A DNA stretch of 64,000 nucleotides from Eledone cirrhosa (taxonomy: Eukaryota): NCBI GenBank assembly GCA_964016885.1, contig OZ024742.1, positions 56,606,001-56,670,000 on the forward strand. Reading direction: 5' to 3'. Position 1 is the stretch's first letter. Each line of letters starts with the position of its first letter. The notes beneath the pieces were generated by a model. It was not told where the DNA came from. It did not search any database and saw nothing but the letters and a program-made list of their open reading frames with translations. Positions 8,997 through 56,349 of this stretch are shown here, one piece after another. A program made the translations under genes and the position numbers.

Positions 8997-9230
8997 AAAA
9001 AAGTAGAAACAATTATTACATTTCATACGAAACGACAATTATTCAAAAGCAACAGATACATTTATTCAACAACAAGAGATACATCTTTTTTAAAACCTGT
9101 CAACGAACATAGATTCTTACAGACTTTGAGTCGAATCGGTTTGAAATTGTGCAAATGTATAAACATGGAACATGTGCACACACACAACAACAACAACAAT
9201 CTGCCTGTTATAGATAATGATAAACAATAA

Positions 9231-9599
9231 TATCCTCTATGAGGTCACTAAACCTGCTAGAAACAGCAGCTAACTCTCCCCCTTATCACACCACTCCCTA
9301 CTGTCTTAAATTTAGAAAACACATATCCTCTATGAGGTTACTAAACCTGCTAGAAACAGCAGCTAACTCTCCCCCATATCATACCCCTCCCTACTGTCTT
9401 AAATTTAGAAAACATATCTTCTATGAGGTCACTAAACCTGGTAGAAACAGCAGCTAACTCTCCCCCATTCACACCACTCCCTACTGTCTTAAATTTAGAA
9501 AACACATATCCTCTATGAGGTCAATAAACCTGCTAGAAACAACAGCTAACTCTCCCTCATATCACAACCCTCCCTACTGTCTTAAATTTAGAAAACACA
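9231..9599. repeat. Minisatellite, 4 x 91-93 bp
   Basis: Unit tatcctctatgaggtcactaaacctgctagaaacagcagctaactctccc...tactgtcttaaatttagaaaacaca starts at 9231, 9324, 9415, 9507. Confidence 0.95.
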
Positions 9600-10429: not shown

Positions 10430-11162
10430 CGGCGTTGTTGTTGTTGTTACTGCTGTTGTTGATATCATTGTTGTTGAGGTTGTTGTTCTTGTTTTCGTTG
10501 TTACGTCGTCGTCGTCGTTCTTAACGTTGTTGAGGTTGTTGTTGTTCTCGCTGTCGTTTACTTATGTCTTATACATTGCCGTTTTCCTCATAGTTGCTGT
10601 TGCAGTTGTTTTTGTTGCTGCAGTTGCAGTCATTGTCGTTGCTAATGTTGTTAGTGCTAGTGGTGGTGGTGCTGGTGGTGCTGGTGATGGTTGTGCTGGC
10701 GGTGGTGGTGGATGTCGTGGTGGTGGTGGTGGTGGTTGTCGTGGTGGTGGTGGTGGTGGTGATGGTGGTGGAGGTGGTGGTGGTGGAGGTGGTTTTGGTG
10801 CAGGTGGTGGTTGTTGGGATGGTGGTCGTCGTCGTCGTGATGGTGGTGGTGGTGGTGGTGGAGGTGGTTTTGGTGCAGGCGGTGGTTGTTGGGATGGTGG
10901 TGGTGGTCGTCGTCGTGATGGTGGTGGTGGTGGTGGTTTTGGTGCAGGTGGTGGTTGTTGGGATGGTGGTGGTCGTCGTTGTCGTGATGGTGGTGGTGGT
11001 GGTAGTGGTGGTGGTTTTGGTGCAGGCGGTGGTTGTTGGGATGGGGGTGGTCGTCGTCGTCGTGATGGTGGTGATGGTGGTGGTTTGGGTGCAGGTGGTG
11101 GTTGTTGGGATGGTGGTGGTCGTCGTTGTCGTGATGGTGGTGGTGGTGGTGGTAGTGGTGGT
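10430..11162. repeat. (GTT)/(GGT) trinucleotide-based minisatellite with a higher-order ~70-bp unit
   Basis: Five copies of ggttttggtgcaggyggtggttgttgggatggtggtggtcgtcgt..gatggt from ~10790 to 11160. Confidence 0.92.
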
Positions 11163-47344: not shown

Positions 47345-50300
47345 GCATTTATCTTGCTTTATGTTCATACGAGTTATCACCAAGTCACAACCAGTGACCT
47401 CAAGAGACAACAAGGTCTGCCATGTTCAAGAAAGAACATACATACTCACACATGCATCTTTAGTGTTTAGACTTGTGATGTAGTTATATTGACAGAATCT
47501 TCCTTAGTATATGGAGAGTTCCCATTAGTACTATCTTTTGTATTTCTCCTATACGCGGGTTTCCTGGGATTTGCGATAAGTAATCATTAGACCCCTTAAG
47601 TATCATTCCTAGAGCGCCTACAACCACTGGTATTGTTTTAGTTCTCAATTTCCACATTTTTCCAATTTCTATCTCCAGGTCCTTATACTTGCTCAATTTT
47701 TCAAATGTTATTATAGATACATTCTTGTCTATTGGAACGGACATATCAATTAGCAGGCATACCCTCTTTTTAAAGTCCTTCAATATTATATCAGGTCTAT
47801 TTGCATCTATTTTTCGGTCTGTTTGGATGCTAAAGTTCCACAAGATTGAGATGTGATCTTTTTCAAGTATGGGAGGTGGCTGATGCTCCCACCAATTCTT
47901 TTGATGGGGCAGGTCAAAATGCTTACACATTATCCAATGTATGTATTGTGCAGCTCTGTCATGCCTGTTTAGGTATTCAGTTGGAGCTATAGGACTGCAC
48001 ATTGAAATGATATGGTCAATGGTCTCTGGTTGTTTTTTACATACACGGCATAATGGGCTGCATCCATTTTTTATTATGTTGGCTTGGTAATTTTTTGTTG
48101 GCAGACACTGATCTTGTGCTGATATAATCAGTCCTTCAGTCTCCGATTTCAGTCCAGAGGATGCCAACCACTGATGGGTTAAAGTTTTGTCAACATCAGG
48201 ATTGTTAGCTCGTTCTGGGTATTTTCCATACAGAGGCTTTTCTTGCCATTTCTTAGCCAGTTTCTGTAGCAGTTCTTTCTTTGCAGTTACTTTTACCTGC
48301 TTTGCTTTTTCTGTTTTTTCCATTTCAGCAGTAAATGGGACTTCTGAAATGTGTAGTCCATTACTGTATCTTTGTGCATCTTTTGTGCATCTTTTGTAAT
48401 CTTTTGATGCTTTCGTCTTTCAAAACGAGTTTGATCATCCAATCATGTGATTCCCTTAGATATGTAGATAATCCAATTGTTGCAGTTTTCAACGCAATGT
48501 CTAACTGGATTAACCCACGTCCTCCTTCTTTCCTAGGGAGATATATTCTATCTGTATCTGCCTTAGGGTGATGCATTCTGTGCATGGTTAAGAATTTTCT
48601 AATTTTTGTATCGAGCCTACGGATCTCTGTGCTTGACCAGTTGTTGACATTGTAACTGTAGGTTACTACTGGTATGGCAAGCGTATTTATGGCATCGATC
48701 CTATTCCTTGCATTCAATTCCGTTCTTAAGATTGCTCTTACTCTGCCGTAACATTCCTTCCTTATCCTTTCCCTCATTGTCGAGTGCTTGATTCCGTCTC
48801 CTTCACAAACACCTAGATATTTGTAAGTTTCCTCTTGATCAAGTTCTCTTATCACATTCCCTCGATCAAGATTAATGTCTGAACTTTTCAGCAACTTTCC
48901 TCTGGTGAACGTTACTTTGGCGCATTTATCTAGTCCAAACTCCATTTTAATGTCATCACTGAACTGCTCCACAGTGGATAATAGCCCTTGCAATTGTTTA
49001 TCATTTTTTGCAAATAGTTTCAGGTCATCCATGTAGAACAAGTGATTAATGGTTTTGTCATAGACTTTATATCCATGTTTTGTTTCATTGAGCATTTTAC
49101 TTAATGGTATAAGTGCGATGCAGAATAAAAGCGGTGATAAAGAGTCACCCTGAAAAATTCCACAATGAATATTAACTTCTCCAGCTTCCAGTGATTTTTT
49201 TCACTATTCAAAAGGAGTGTCGTTTTCCATGTCTTCATACTGAATGACAAAAACCTCCTGACAACGGGGGTTATTTTGAAAATCGCTAAACATTTTTCAA
49301 TCCAACTGTGTGGCAAACTATCGAATGCCTTTTATAATCTATCCAAGCAATTGATACATTTTTGTGTCTATTATGACAATCTTCCAGTATCATTTTGTTA
49401 ACCAAAAGCTGATCCTTACACCCATATGAGCCTCGTTTACACCCTTTCTGCTCAAGAGGAAATAGGTCATTTGTTATCAGGTGGTCATATGTATACTCAG
49501 TTAGGACTGATGTTAAAATTTTATACATTGTGGTCAAGCAAGTTATCGGTCTGTAATTTTTGGGATTGTTTGTCTCATCATTCTTCGGAAGCAGGAATGT
49601 AATGCCGTTCACTAGCCATGATGGTATCTTTTCCGGCTCCTTAACTATTTCATTGTAAAGTTGGGCTAACAGCTCATGAGACTCTGTGAAGGCATTTATC
49701 CAAAAATTGTGTATTTTGTCTTTTCCTGGGGATTTCCATTTGCTGGTTTTTCTTAGAGCCAAACGCAACTGTTCAACTGTTATATTTTCCCATATTTGTT
49801 CCTCAAGGTGAGCTGTATCTTTCATTTGTCTGTCTATCCATGGGGCATGTATATTATGAACTTTTTCTTCGGCCCAGATCTTTTCCCAGAATTCTTGCAC
49901 TTCCTCCTTGGGTGGTATTGATTTAGCAGTTATTGTTGACTTACCAATTTTTCTGGAGAAGTTTCTTTGGTTGGTTTTGAACATATTATTGTCCTTATAG
50001 AATCTAGATCGTTTTTCAAAGCGCCTTATACGAGCAGCTTTGGCCGACACTTTTTGCTTGATTATTTCTATCAGCATGCCTATGTCACTTGTTGGTTTTA
50101 TACTGTACTTTCTTTTCAATTTTCTAAGTTTAGTTTGTTTAACATGTTCACCTACTTTATATTTTTTTTAAATTTCTATGTCAGATCGGAGAAGGTTTAT
50201 TTGGCGATTGATTTTCTCTTGCCAAGTAGATTTCTTGTGGGAATTCCTTTGTTTTTTCATCTTCACTCCACATAAGTGAGTGGTGACTTTAGCCGATGCA

Positions 50301-51330
50301 TAATAGAGATGATTTAAATCAGTAATGTTTAGTTTCTTTGTGATGATAATGTTTTTGATAATTATGTTAGTCTTGTGTATTATCTTTTGGTTCTGTTTGG
50401 AGTTCTGGATCTAAGGGAGGGTGTCTCGTTCCCCCATGTCAGATTCTTTCATTTTCATCCATTCGATCATAATTTCATCCTTCAAGTTGGCAAGTTCATT
50501 CTCATTCATTTCTTTATCATTTACGATCTCATTGTTTTCATTTGGAGTTTCATCTTGAGCATGCACTCCCTCCACTTTTTCGATCCTTTCTTTAATTTGT
50601 TCTGATGTCAGTGATTCCGCCCCAACCCTGGGATTCGAAGTGTTACAATTTTCCTCGTTTTCACTGACACATGTTTCATTTTCCCTTCGCTGACTTTGTG
50701 CTAATAGCTTGATCTGATCAATTTCTGTATCAGTTAGTAACTTTTTTTTTTACAATATTTCTTTGTATATTGGCTAGTTTGTTACTGTCAATATAGCCTC
50801 TGTTTTCTGGATGTTTCTTTTTCCAGTTGATATATGTCTGTTCTGTATTCGATGTATTTGGTGGGTAGTACATGGCAGTGTAAAAAGCCTCAAGGACTTC
50901 TTTATTATCTTCCCTTGACCATTTTTCTCTCTTTTTCTTTGGATTTCTTGGTGGTGAGCATGGAGGGCCAACAGTAGGAGTATTCCGGTTATGGGAGGTC
51001 TCCAGCTCCGAAGTGATGGGAAGGTTTGAACCATTAGCTGATTTTTCGACCCCAGTCTGGTTCCTCTCTGAGGGACGCGGCCCTTTTTTACCCGGGTGAC
51101 GGCCGATCCGGTGTGAGATTTTATCATTAGACATTTACTTTATTTTGTCGCGTTTTATCCTTATCCGCCAAGGGGTAATCATTTCGTGTTACCACTTCTA
51201 GAACGAGTGTCAACCAAGACTAGAGGGGTCGTTCTCCCCTAGAGACACGGCTATTCCCCGCCGGCCGCCATCCCGGTATTTCTTGGTCACGGGGTTTTCT
51301 TTTTTGTTGTTTTTTTAAATTGTTATTATC
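47345..51330 (-). mobile_element. Near full-length R4/Dong-clade non-LTR retrotransposon, inactivated by frameshifts
   Basis: KSPGKD, NYRPITCL, EQKG, WIDYK, QGDSLSPLLF, FYMDDLKLF RT motifs; CRVC..ETIDHIISMC zinc knuckle, RHD, NRPDI..LIDMSVP..EKLSKY restriction-like endonuclease; (TAA)n at 3' end. Confidence 0.92.
47484..51134 (-). pseudogene. Disrupted single ORF: reverse transcriptase plus restriction-like endonuclease
   Basis: Collinear ORF pieces 50730-51134, 49286-50119, 49101-49316, 48361-49095, 47484-48323. Confidence 0.9.
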
Positions 51331-52256
51331 ATGAGTGGTTCCTTAATGTGAGCATTGCGTGGCTTAAGAATGAAATTATTAATAATTGTCTCCACATCAG
51401 GCACAAGGCCAGCAATTACCCAGCGCATTAAATAATATTATATACTTTTTGCTGAAGTTGCCTGTTATTATTGTTGGCTATGTCGGTGGTGATGCTGGGG
51501 CTTTTTATATTGTTGGTGGGGAAGGGGGAGCCAGCAGTGCCATAGTTGTTGACTTTTGGCCGGTGGCCGGGTCACCAAGTCAATCTATTTATATATTTTG
51601 CTAGCCTCTCCCTTGTCTAGTGATACCGCCACCTTCCCCATTCTTAAGTTAACAGAAGGTAATAGGGATAGTGGTGGTAGCAATGAAGGAGTGGTGGCGG
51701 CGGTGATGGGATAGTGGTAGCAATGATGGATGGAGTGGTGGCGACGGTGGCGTTGTCGTTACTGAGTTTTGTAGTTTTGTTTGATCTGTAGTATCTATGC
51801 GTTTGTGGCGCGTATGTTTAATATATGTGTTGACATATTTTTCTTAATATTGGAATTAAACATTTTGTTAAAACTTGAGACAATAATAATAGTAATTATT
51901 ATTATGATGCTGGGGTTGGTGGTGGTGGTGGTGAAATTGCCGTTATCTAGCTGTTATATTTAGTGTACACAGCGGGGTGATGGGGTAGGTGGTGTATCTA
52001 GTTTCTGGTGTTGGTGAAATTGCTGTTATTTGGCTGTTCTATATAGTGTAGACAGAGGGGGTTTTCTTCCATTTATAACCATTTTCTTTTTTGAATATAA
52101 AATATATAATACAAAATTGGATATTTGAGCGATATAACAATATATTATGGATCCGAATTTTTATGAGACTTGATTCGGTGATTTATGCATCATTTGTACT
52201 AAGAATTGTTATTTCACAATTGATTTAAATATGTTAAAAATTATTATTATTATTGC

Positions 52257-52312
<56 letters not shown>

Positions 52313-52384
52313 TGTTAATGTTAATATTTTCTTTTTAGAATCTTTATATATTTTATATGCGTAGACATAGGTGTACATATTGAT

Positions 52385-52635
52385 GTGGAGACGCTAATGT
52401 GGAGACGCTAATGTAATGTGTATATGTTAATGTGTAGACATTAATGTGTAGACGTTAATGTGTAGACGCTAACGTGTAGACCTTAATGCGTAAATGGTAA
52501 TGCGTGAACGTCATTGTGTAGATGTTAATGTGTAGACATTGGTGTGTAGATGTTAATGTGTAGATGCTAATATGCAGACATTAATGTTAACTTGTAGACG
52601 TTAAGGTATAGACATTAATGTTAATGTGTAGATGC
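52385..52635. repeat. Degenerate 14-bp minisatellite (taatgtgtagacgt)
   Basis: Directly visible, ~17 units. Confidence 0.88.
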
Positions 52636-52741
52636 CAGACAGGTCAATGTTAGATGCTATAATTCTCTCCTAGTAATATTCTATTACATCCTACTACACA
52701 CGGTTCTACTTAATTGCTTATTAAAGATTATTTGCCTGCGT

Positions 52742-53040
52742 GAGACTTGAAACACCCATTGACTCCAGAATAAAACACTGATAAAATGTCCATGTGATTA
52801 CATCTGTTGTTGGTTCTCCTGGCTCAAGATGTATGTTGTAAGACTCGAAACACTCACTGACTGCAGTATACAGCAATTATGAGGTGTCTTATAGTTGGAT
52901 CACATGGTTGAGGCTGTATGCTGTAAGATCTGAAAGATGTAATGATTCCAGGATACAACTCTGATGATGTGCCCATGTATTTACATATGTAGTTGAGTCA
53001 CCCGATTGAGGGTGTATGTTGTAAGACCTGAAACACCCAG
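52742..53040 (+). repeat. Diverged 85-98 bp tandem repeat (3+ units) containing hammerhead core words
   Basis: agac..gaaacac.c block recurs with GAAA at 52749, 52847, 52932, 53030. Confidence 0.8.
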
Positions 53041-53129
53041 ATATTTCCAATGATTTACGTCTGTGCATGTGCATTCAATGTATTTTTTCAAACACATATA
53101 ATAAGCTGCAATGAATGCACGGGTCTTTG

Positions 53130-53430
53130 TGAGTGAGTCAGGTACTCGCTTCGAAATTGTAAGATCGTAAATTCAATTCCTTGTGGCGTGTTGTGTCCTT
53201 GAACAAAACACTTTATTTCATGCTGCTCCAGTCCATTCGGTTGGCAAAAATGAGTTAAACCTGTAATTTGAAAATCCAGCCTTGCCAAATTCAGTGTCAC
53301 TAGGAATCTCCCTGCTCACTACATTAAAGATACACGTGTCTGTGGAATGCTCGGTCACTTGCACGTTAATTTCCCGAGTAGGCTGTTACGTTGATCGTAT
53401 GAACTAGAACACTCGTCGTTGTAACCGAGT
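53130..53430 (+). mobile_element. SINE family 2-related copy
   Basis: ttcaattcc...gttgtgtccttgaacaaaacactttatttcatgctgctccagtccattcgg. Confidence 0.7.
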
Positions 53431-56349
53431 GGCAGTTATAATGAATTGTGATTTACTTGAACATTCTAAACTGAACTCTTGAATATTATTTTGGCTGAAT
53501 TTTTGTGTATTTTTGCTCTTTATATTGTATGTATTAATACGTTTTGCCTACTATAAAGACATGACTAGAAATCAATTTTGCCGCACATAACATATTATAT
53601 TTTGGCATGCATACACCTCATTTTTATCTAACGAATATGAATATCTATGTACTGTTCCATAATAAATACCATGCCAACCGCCGCGTCTACTTCGCATGTT
53701 CAGACTAAACTCATCTCAAACTACATTTTCTCATTAACCAATATTTATTTATTTTTTAAAACGGTAGGATGTAATTTGAGTGATATTTGGCTGCTATGTT
53801 TAGCTATTCGCGCGACCTTGAAACGAATCTCTCATTACATCGCATATCATGCTTATTGATTAATGTGACAACATTTACGTTTATAGACAATGTATATGTT
53901 CTATTTGTTATTAAAATAACTGGTGGTGTTTTTTCTAATACATTCAAGTATACTTTACAATTCTCAAATACTGTTATATGATTGCAGTCATTGATATAGA
54001 GATTAGTTTATATTTCCATTATTTTCCTTTATATGGGAGACTGCTTGTATGAATTCAAGGTGAGTTAGGTAGCGGTTACTGCGCAAAAATAGTTATATCT
54101 TATATGAATTCAAGATGACTTAGCAGTTATATTGTAACAAGTTATATCTTCCTTGAAAGGGCATAAAAGCTATTAATAGATAGACTGTTTCAAAGAGGTT
54201 ATTATATACGTGACATTTTATTGGTCTTAGAATATTCAAAGGGGGAACATAGGTTGTAGTTTAAAGTTGTAAATACTGTTTTTTTTATTTAAAATTCTGT
54301 CTCGAAATAATTTGAAAAAAAAACAGTAATTTATTTCAGAAATTTGTAGGAAAAATTATTATTATTTTGTTAAAATTATAGGCTGTGTGTCTTCCCTTTG
54401 ATCTCGAATGTTGTTTAGTTTTGATCTTAGTGAGTGAGTGACTTGGGTTGTTTAGCATGATATGGTTTGCGTGAGTATTTCTCTGTGTTCCTCTACTTAT
54501 TTTCGGACAGAAAATTATTTCTTCATGTGTGCTTAAAAATAAAATATTTCCAGTCATGTTTTTTCTTTCTTTTTTTGTTCTTCTTTCTTTGTCTGACATC
54601 AAAATACATTTCTAATGTGATGTTTTGAATTGGATTAAAACTCTAAAAGACACAATAGTCAGTGGATGTCTGCTTTTCAGTGATTGCTTTCATATTTGTT
54701 AATGAAATGTTTGAAGAAAATAATCCTAATCTTAGTTGTTTACAGTCGGTGAAATTATTGAGACTGTAAATTGTACATGTTGCAGACAATTTTTGTTCTT
54801 AATAATCAACACCAATTTTCTTTATATGATCGATATACTTTAGTTGATGTATTTTCCTTTGTTTTGTTTTGTTTCTTGTTGTTTTCTTTTTAACAATTAT
54901 AATATATAATCTGCGTTGTTTCGTTCCAATCCTTTGTTTGAATTGAAACTCCTACCAGACAGAAATGTAACCGTGGAACATTTTCCTTGGACCAATGACA
55001 ACTGATTATACATTATTGAGTAGCTCTTCGAATTTCATTTGTCCCTACCTTCCTCATCAATCATCAAATATATACACACACACGCACACACATATATATA
55101 TATATACGCGCACACAAACATGTATATATGAATATACAAATATACTCATATACATACATATGTGATTCATCCATTATATGCATCTGTTACCCTCTGCAAA
55201 TATAAGTTCTTTTTTTATATACATTGTTTTTCTATTCGACCTTCACAAAATCACTTGGAAGTCTCTTTACAGGGTTATTTGGCTGCGAGAAATCCGCTTT
55301 GAATCGCACCTTACATTCTTAAAAGAATGTAGATTTGATCATATAACTCTACATATATTATGTTCTATTAAAATATTGTAATTTCAGAGCTAGATTGCCT
55401 TTCATCATAGGTTTGGTTGATCTTGACTAGCCTGTGGCTAAACTACGATAACAACAACGGCAACCACAACACCAATACTCCAATTAAATAATCGTAATTA
55501 TTAATAAAGTCCAAAATATCTATTAAGTTTTATACACCGAAGAAAGAGATATATATCTTTAATGTATAGAGCCAAAATACAATTGCATATATTGGTAACA
55601 AAAGAAAGAAAGTTCAAGACGTATTCATGTGTTTAATTGAAATCATTTCGTTCTATCGACCTTATCTATATCTAGGAAGCCAGTGGTCTAAACGAGAATT
55701 ACATCTCATGCCAATTCCATCAAAAGATTTGCGTCATTTAATTGATTAGTTTTAATTAATATTGTTGCAATGACATGTATTCACTTCGGTCTATTCAACA
55801 ACATATTTACAAGAATCTCTAGTCCAAATGTGGCTTTAATTGGGAATGTTTCTGATATCATCCAGTTAAATTAGTTCACGGGGACTATTAAATTCTGCCG
55901 CAGCTGAAAACCATTTTCTTTTAAAGATTGCTTCTGTTCAGGTTATAACTCATTAGAAAGGTTTCTCTGGTCAGATGATCTCAGTCGTAATAAAATATTT
56001 TATAACTATTATGAATTTTAGATCAAATCCCTGACAGAATTCTTTGTGAACAGACATGAAATAATTAACTAACATTTCAAAGGTCGTAACCAATAGCAAT
56101 CAGTACGAATGAATGATAATCTAATTCAATTAAAATAGTTATACATTGTTTCGTTTTTAATTCTAATTCTCCTGTATATTAGGTTCGAAATTCATTTATT
56201 TACCATTTTTTTTCAATTTACAGGGAAATACACATTTTCTGGTATGATCACTTGCCTACATATTAGATATGTGTATATTTATATACATTTTCGTGCAGCT
56301 TCCGTTACCCTCTCTCTATGTATACAAATAAAACTTTATAAATAAATAA

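Follow-up and report, generated by a model that had tools for sequence, protein, structure and literature searches.

Non-circular arrangements of the hammerhead ribozyme have been published and validated as types SGC, CSG and GCS (Eckert et al., 2023; PMC10085705); here, as throughout, C denotes the core strand, S the cleavage-site strand and G the GAAA strand. The validated type-SGC ribozyme carries one extra U between A9 and G10.1 and possesses a linking helix, and insertions beside the CUGAnGA motif of known hammerheads do not exceed 1-2 nt (PMC10085705), which is also the range of the core insertions listed in PMC3088659. Examples of types SGC and CSG stem from metatranscriptomes, metagenomes and one bacterium, with none from the genomes of other known organisms (PMC10085705).

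Among retroelements, Penelope-like elements carry minimal type I hammerheads and the non-LTR retrozymes of metazoans carry type I as well, the RNAs of retrozymes being cut to monomers and circularised (PMC6155905, PMC7229834). In R2 retrotransposons, an HDV-like ribozyme frees the element RNA from a longer transcript (PMC7650587, PMC6155905). The R2 group includes the Hero clade (PMC3636483), which among molluscs is found mostly in cephalopods (PMC10294476), and for which no ribozyme was found reported in the literature searched.

Here we describe a repeat within a stretch of 64,000 nucleotides of Eledone cirrhosa DNA, referred to as the window. The repeat derives from the 3' UTR of an R2-group non-LTR retrotransposon, a piece of which has been duplicated. 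With a probability of roughly three in four, the locus represents a decayed tail duplication from a family whose intact tails carry a predicted self-cleaving hammerhead with its core opened between A9 and G10.1.

The repeat in the window

The repeat contains four GAAA blocks (starting at 52749, 52847, 52932 and 53030), three S blocks and three core words. An earlier sequence-only reading had described a tandem repeat of about 98 nt; the GAAA blocks and a recurrence beyond chance bear out the repeat, but their spacing of 98, 85 and 98 nt gives no single period. The features are as follows:

52740-53040, forward strand: decayed orphan tandem fragment of a subfamily-A retrotransposon 3' UTR (BLAST and family search)
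52744-52791, forward strand: partial unit 0, with stem II 3' strand, GAAA (52749-52752), stem III 5' strand, stem I 5' strand, core (52778-52784) and stem IV 3' strand
52812-52889, forward strand: unit 1, with stem II 5' strand (52812-52816), S block with UA (52832-52833), GAAA (52847-52850) and core (52876-52882)
52897-52974, forward strand: unit 2, with stem II 5' strand (52897-52901), UA (52917-52918) and GAAA (52932-52935)
52995-53038, forward strand: unit 3, with stem II 5' strand (52995-52999, its first base the equivalent of G10.1), stem III 3' strand (53010-53014), U16.1/A17 (53015-53016), stem I 3' strand (53017-53021), stem II 3' strand (53025-53029), GAAA (53030-53033) and stem III 5' strand (53034-53038); in an intact copy the predicted cut would fall at 53016/53017

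The cores of unit 0, in which G8 has become A, and of unit 1, in which both C3 and G5 are altered, are predicted to be dead. Unit 2 retains an intact CUGAUGA (52961-52967), but its position 2.1 is a U facing U at 1.1, and its stem III 5' strand after the GAAA is broken; unit 3 breaks off ahead of its own core. The window's own units fail the hammerhead core rules and the pairing of core-adjacent positions, and none passes an intact-unit scan in either reading frame, in agreement with the earlier description of every unit as degenerate. The units are accordingly predicted to be inactive and the window copy to be a fossil. An Rfam scan of window positions 50000-56000 yielded no hammerhead match.

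When a natural copy was compared with the window by BLAST, matches were confined to 52740-52791, 52809-52891, 52894-52974 and 52992-53040, and the window showed neither an ORF remnant nor a stem IV 5' strand, a hairpin V or a 3' tail. What had been taken for a free-standing repeat of about 98 nt is instead a dead fragment of a retrotransposon 3' UTR; nor does it amount to a complete ribozyme, as the predicted working form needs helices IV and V, which are absent from the window copy. The words named in the sequence-only reading are all in place, including UA at 53015-53016 and TACAGCA/TGCTGTA at 52869-52875/52919-52925, and the cut it predicted after the equivalent of 53016 fits U16.1/A17. In the unit it judged best (52954-53038), the 1.1-2.1 pair is U against U, and the stem II formed with the upstream strand described below contains a mismatch; the unit folds no better than its shuffles (z -0.34). 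The supposed compensatory change in TACAGCA/TGCTGTA, although its letters are present, is weak as evidence because the U-to-C change lacks a partner in 15-17 of 44 distinct family units, as counted with a pattern that caught no unit with the partner change.

Further repeats lie in the window: directly upstream, at 52380-52640, a degenerate tandem repeat of about 12 nt with weak matches to microRNA models; at 9230-9599, four copies of a 93-nt tandem repeat; and at 10660-11162, a GTG-rich array with a period of 147 nt.

The host retrotransposon

The animal's own genome (3.0 Gb) contains at least 151 matches to the window repeat, in arrays of up to 66 units. Flanks are common across loci, with the end of an ORF upstream and a tail of about 40 nt downstream, and many copies consist of a single unit in the order S-G-C. 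Longer ORF remnants with an RT domain occur in a younger subfamily, B, in which the architecture of the ORF was read, subfamily A being represented by a C-terminal remnant only. Specifically, subfamily B has a single ORF encoding RT, then a CCHC motif, then a nuclease with a PD..E motif, and RVT_1 scored above the Pfam cutoff in two of the seven ORF pieces scanned. An ORF of this composition, single and coding for RT, a CCHC motif and a PD..E nuclease, is likewise characteristic of the Hero clade (HEROFr, HEROTn, HERODr).

The last 190 aa of subfamily B are 86-87% identical to several fish proteins, 59% identical to Takifugu BAC82598.1 and 62% identical to Tetraodon AAN12398.1, the latter clustering with BAC82599.1. 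These three accessions are presumably HERO elements. The species of HEROFr and HEROTn match the two pufferfish, as listed in PMC2790886. Unlike HERO, in which no such motif was reported upstream of RT (PMC2790886), subfamily B has an N-terminal Cys/His motif. In a midpoint-rooted tree of the C-terminal domain, built without outgroups, subfamily B groups with the two pufferfish proteins. The host element likely belongs to the Hero clade.

Three subfamilies of the animal's own genome differ in the sequence of stem I and share the same core. Subfamily B (L105:5596-6165; L091, L094, L097, L099, L101, L102) is far nearer to fish elements than to the older subfamily of its own genome. By sequence, it is a candidate for horizontal transfer. 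The viral contigs searched contained no relative. Subfamily C (L111, L115-L118, L125, L127, L130, L134, L137) keeps the core with different stems I, II and IV, and the core is likewise kept in subfamily D of the same genome (L112, L128, L131).

A hammerhead core in related tails

A protein-driven scan, blind to the RNA motif, returned 80 metagenome loci at 39-87% protein identity, of which the 62 with a tail of at least 200 nt and a match reaching the ORF end were kept and 18 were dropped. A strict descriptor (CUGANGA, GAAA, UH, stem I of 4 bp and stem III of 3 bp) was found in the order S-G-C in 43 of these 62 tails, the remaining 19 failing it. The five other block orders gave 0, 0, 0, 0 and 1 hits, the type I (CGS) order being found in 0/62 tails, and S-G-C was found in 0/62 antisense sequences, 0/62 ORF ends and 0/1240 dinucleotide shuffles. 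The motif-bearing loci are located on all main branches of the C-terminal tree (without outgroups).

With a relaxed descriptor, allowing one mismatch per core word and leaving positions 16.1 and 17 unconstrained, 46 of the 62 tails score and 16 fail. Within these 46, U4, G5, A6, G8, A9, A13, A14 and A15.1 are invariant, C3 is kept in 45 and G12 in 43. Position 16.1 is U in 45/46; at H17, 18 tails have U, 15 have A and 13 have C, G being absent; and N7 is free (27 U, 11 C, 6 A, 2 G). At the level of sequence, the patterns at U16.1, H17 and N7 obey hammerhead rules, and family-wide the core agrees with the hammerhead core criteria given in PMC3088659. An Rfam search of 15 related loci produced no hammerhead match.

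Helices and a proposed opened core

Pairing was assessed by comparing each tail's own strands with foreign ones in 22 clusters at 75% identity, using 5000 permutations; stems I and III are imposed by the descriptor, and the upstream stem II, helix IV and P4 are free of it. Own and foreign pairing amount to 6.14 and 1.16 for stem I and 4.64 and 1.98 for stem III (each 0/5000 permutations). A stem II formed with an upstream strand, which starts about 19-20 nt before U16.1, gives 4.91 and 3.02 (0/5000); helix IV, between the strand after A9 and a strand near the stop codon, 8.77 and 5.01 (0/5000); and P4, the helix linking stems I and II, 6.77 and 4.46 bp (0/5000).

The covariation of homologues, which the sequence-only reading had proposed as a check, is present in its stems I and III and absent from its stem II. 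That stem, pairing the strand directly after CUGAUGA with AGAYY as in the canonical hammerhead, scores 1.82 against a foreign value of 1.74 (1949/5000 permutations), and its 58.9% pairing on a MAFFT alignment is matched by a slid control. No stem II 5' strand lies 0-2 nt after A9, where hammerheads are expected to have it. The direct joining of stem I to stem II, part of the same reading, is borne out by a linker of 0-7 nt in the family tails.

With the upstream strand, position 10.1 is G in 21/22 clusters, facing C11.1 in 17 and U in 4, such that the 10.1-11.1 pair is G-C in 17/22 and G-U in 4/22; the 1.1-2.1 pair, imposed by the descriptor, is Watson-Crick in 22/22. The MAFFT alignment, comprising 18 tails hand-picked for similar length (17 of the 43 hits and one own-genome copy), shows pairing of 98.8% for stem I, 100% for stem III, 92.1% for the upstream stem II and 89.7% for P4, with 23 double changes in the upstream stem II (0/500 shuffles). 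Helices IV and V are only 55.5% and 48.7% paired on this alignment because of register shifts. Under a strict test requiring IV of at least 5 bp and V of at least 4 bp, flush with each other and with the core, 12/22 clusters pass and 10/22 fail, 13 reaching p <=0.01. Five intact tails were folded: all five formed IV and V, at z values from -2.2 to -4.8, and three formed P4 together with III.

Read 5' to 3', the proposed fold would begin with the stem IV 5' strand, hairpin V, G10.1 with the stem II 5' strand, and the P4 5' strand; continue with the stem III 3' strand, the NUH cut site, the stem I 3' strand and a short linker; then the stem II 3' strand ending in C11.1, GAAA, the stem III 5' strand and the P4 3' strand; and end with the stem I 5' strand, CUGANGA and the stem IV 3' strand. 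Intact natural tails that extend over this whole span, from stem IV to stem IV, include L220:448-570, L196:2064-2181 and L172:2068-2186. Helix IV would stack on V, and stem II on the A9-G12 pair, to give a perfect four-way junction with the strands A9-to-IV, IV-to-V, V-to-G10.1 and C11.1-to-G12; located between A9 and G10.1, this junction would carry the ribozyme ends. The known hammerhead metal site, with its G10.1 base and A9 phosphate, would be retained. The helices, the host element and the conservation of the core come out of sequence comparison; the four-way junction with IV on V we infer as a model. Probably, to judge from the sequence, the RNA would cleave after H17, 88 nt before the 3' end of the element.

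Comparison with known ribozymes

Types SGC (HRIMA-1 and a variant) and CSG share with the retrotransposon tails a cyclic block order, the core, a short connection between stems I and II, and a helix that ties these two stems together at their distal ends, here P4; the link from P4 to stem III resembles that in the published CSG alignment, and the link from stem III to P4 that of SGC. In contrast to both types, block C of the tail motif is split, with the stem II 5' strand upstream, so that the uninterrupted block C is lacking and two helices replace their 0-1 nt between A9 and G10.1. By its sequence, the tail motif would work like SGC and CSG and is not a member of either as defined. Given that known insertions beside CUGAnGA reach 1-2 nt only, the split core is without tested precedent; moreover, the patterns used by Eckert et al. 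need CUGAUGA(U)G contiguous with stem II and therefore could not find it. The sources differ as well, SGC and CSG being environmental or from one bacterium and the split-core motif residing in animal retrotransposon tails.

A hammerhead within a tandemly arranged retroelement, here a predicted one, is a feature shared with Penelope-like elements and retrozymes (PMC6155905, PMC7229834). Retrozymes, however, carry a circular-permutation type I motif in non-coding repeats of 170-400 nt (PMC7229834), and the present array units, at 53-108 nt and with another topology, differ from metazoan retrozymes on both counts. Unlike the type I motifs of Penelope-like elements and retrozymes, the tail motif is doubly pseudoknotted, has a split core and is hosted by an element with RT and a restriction-like endonuclease. 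The HDV-like ribozyme of R2 is 5'-terminal and marks where full-length insertions end. The tail motif differs in ribozyme class and in position, its predicted site being 88 nt inside the 3' end and not marking copy ends. Neither a split core nor a hammerhead in Hero was found in the literature searched, and the novelty is provisional because subscription papers and curated repeat libraries lay outside that search.

Head-to-tail copies and a possible role

The elements lie head to tail, with a unit of 3.6 kb at the locus L220, and the tail-to-5' junction is identical in 4/4 own-genome tandems. In 9/43 metagenome loci a further ORF starts no more than about 400 nt on, a count to be read in the knowledge that collapsed assemblies would look alike. 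The predicted cut lies 88 nt before the tail-to-5' junction. Upstream partial copies measure 115, 132, 597 and 899 nt as against the 88 expected, none of the four stopping at the cut; all were copied through the site, which excludes simple 5' trimming. The same four lead us to reject the idea that full-length copies begin at the cut site. Two further copies have their starts 6 and 12 nt from the junction, and another four at a distance of 198-276 nt; across genomic copies, 5' ends are not enriched at the predicted cut.

Among 26 loci, a breakpoint at the predicted cut occurs only in L229, where, at 1430-1460, internal RT sequence joins the tail at that point via a 4-nt microhomology. This single join, if the RNA cleaves, is as expected for a copied cleaved 3' fragment. 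Elsewhere, a few copies, too few to count, have extra 3' bases matching the junction; at L282:2148-3014 the 5' part (unit positions 12-180) is inverted relative to the 3' part, which resembles twin priming; and downstream of the tandem, at L220:5874-8196, lies an inverted repeat of 2.3 kb whose self-complementarity is 93%. At L220:596-800 and in L160, L164, L172, L183, L188, L193 and L196, the 5' region contains short boxes that recur. This region is conserved across distant lineages, starts 50-90 nt past the core, and is possibly an internal promoter.

We prefer, tentatively and at somewhat short of even odds, a role in which read-through RNA is cut and re-joined. The ribozyme would cut the read-through RNA of head-to-tail elements once per unit; the cut ends, still held by helices IV, II, P4 and III, would be re-joined, and re-joining would enable tail-primed reverse transcription to read through the site and to enter a second round. 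After one round, collision or strand displacement would follow.

A possible alternative, against which the odds lean more clearly, is that the active ribozyme serves as a switch in the 3' UTR, removing the priming tail from RNAs that the element's protein does not protect, or ending read-through, such that only uncut linear RNA is copied and tandems arise by end-to-end template jumps. Copies beginning 6, 12 and about 200 nt (three) from the junction fit such linear RNAs, with 5' ends unrelated to the cut, and the L220 tandem, whose two tails differ by a 2-nt deletion common to L228 and L229, would come from two different templates. The identity of the junction in all four tandems speaks against this reading, however; stops near the junction would, we infer, equally fit collision after one round on a circle; and a purely self-limiting device is harder to square with conservation across the clade. 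The broadest proposal is rather unlikely: that throughout a whole animal non-LTR clade the four-way-junction hammerhead makes unit-length circles, target-primed for more than one round, which would explain the arrays. The difference between the two L220 tails argues against one monomer circle for that insertion, and a single circle as the source of this tandem is disfavoured.

Improbable, in our estimation, is the reading of the tail as a folded structure without catalytic activity, one that the element's reverse transcriptase recognises and that only looks like a hammerhead. It draws on the strand after CUGANGA, which is held in helix IV, so that what follows A9 does not pair in stem II, and on the integrated copies, all of which are uncut and without a truncation hotspot at the cut. 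Yet stem II is supplied by the upstream strand, which sets G10.1 opposite C11.1; binding gives no reason for an H17 that avoids G beside a free N7; and G8 is invariant and G12 nearly so while the stems turn over.

Arrays and decay

The strand order in the window was read as C-S-G. That the strands are those of a non-circular, pseudoknotted hammerhead stands, but C-S-G is rejected as the native form, the single-copy tails reading S-G-C; the appearance of C-S-G arises because the duplicated stretch runs from the 5' strand of stem II as far as the 3' strand of stem IV. Two junction types, of 85-87 and 97-101 nt, recur at many loci and therefore likely spread with source elements, followed by local expansion. 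No intact unit was found among the fetched array units, and the only intact units in the fetched own-genome loci are seven distinct subfamily-B tails, in the order S-G-C.

Decay was counted in 50 distinct subfamily-A first units from 82 loci, in which the letters of the core have decayed roughly as fast as those next to them and C11.1-G12 decays in the CpG pattern seen at another CpG; the source copy therefore likely had an intact core. Of these 50, 11 have an AC insertion that disrupts stem III. Many loci and arrays (L031-L033, L035-L037, L039, L045, L048, L049) share a 2-nt insertion beside U16.1 with this effect on stem III, so that tails predicted to be dead, for want of an intact core, did spread widely.

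That the 85-100 nt arrays are themselves active, retrozyme-like C-S-G elements giving small linear or circular RNAs is very improbable: long homogeneous arrays of 41 and 66 units do exist, and at the unit junction a core does precede the stem II, S and G blocks of the following unit, but the fetched own-genome loci hold no intact C-S-G unit, numerous arrays are still flanked by element sequence at either end, numerous ones have the insertion in stem III, the length of the unit varies between loci (53-108 nt), and the core is not spared from decay.

Significance

By its sequence, the family motif is likely a new hammerhead topology in a widespread retrotransposon clade, one that standard descriptors and Rfam miss. 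If it cleaves, the working view that none of the three hammerhead blocks tolerates an interruption would be overturned, and the ends of a ribozyme, or a payload, could hang from position 10 via a four-way junction. Cleavage would likewise bring non-circular permutations into animal genomes on a large scale, and would equip an R2-group element with a hammerhead at the 3' side, an HDV-like ribozyme being the case known so far.
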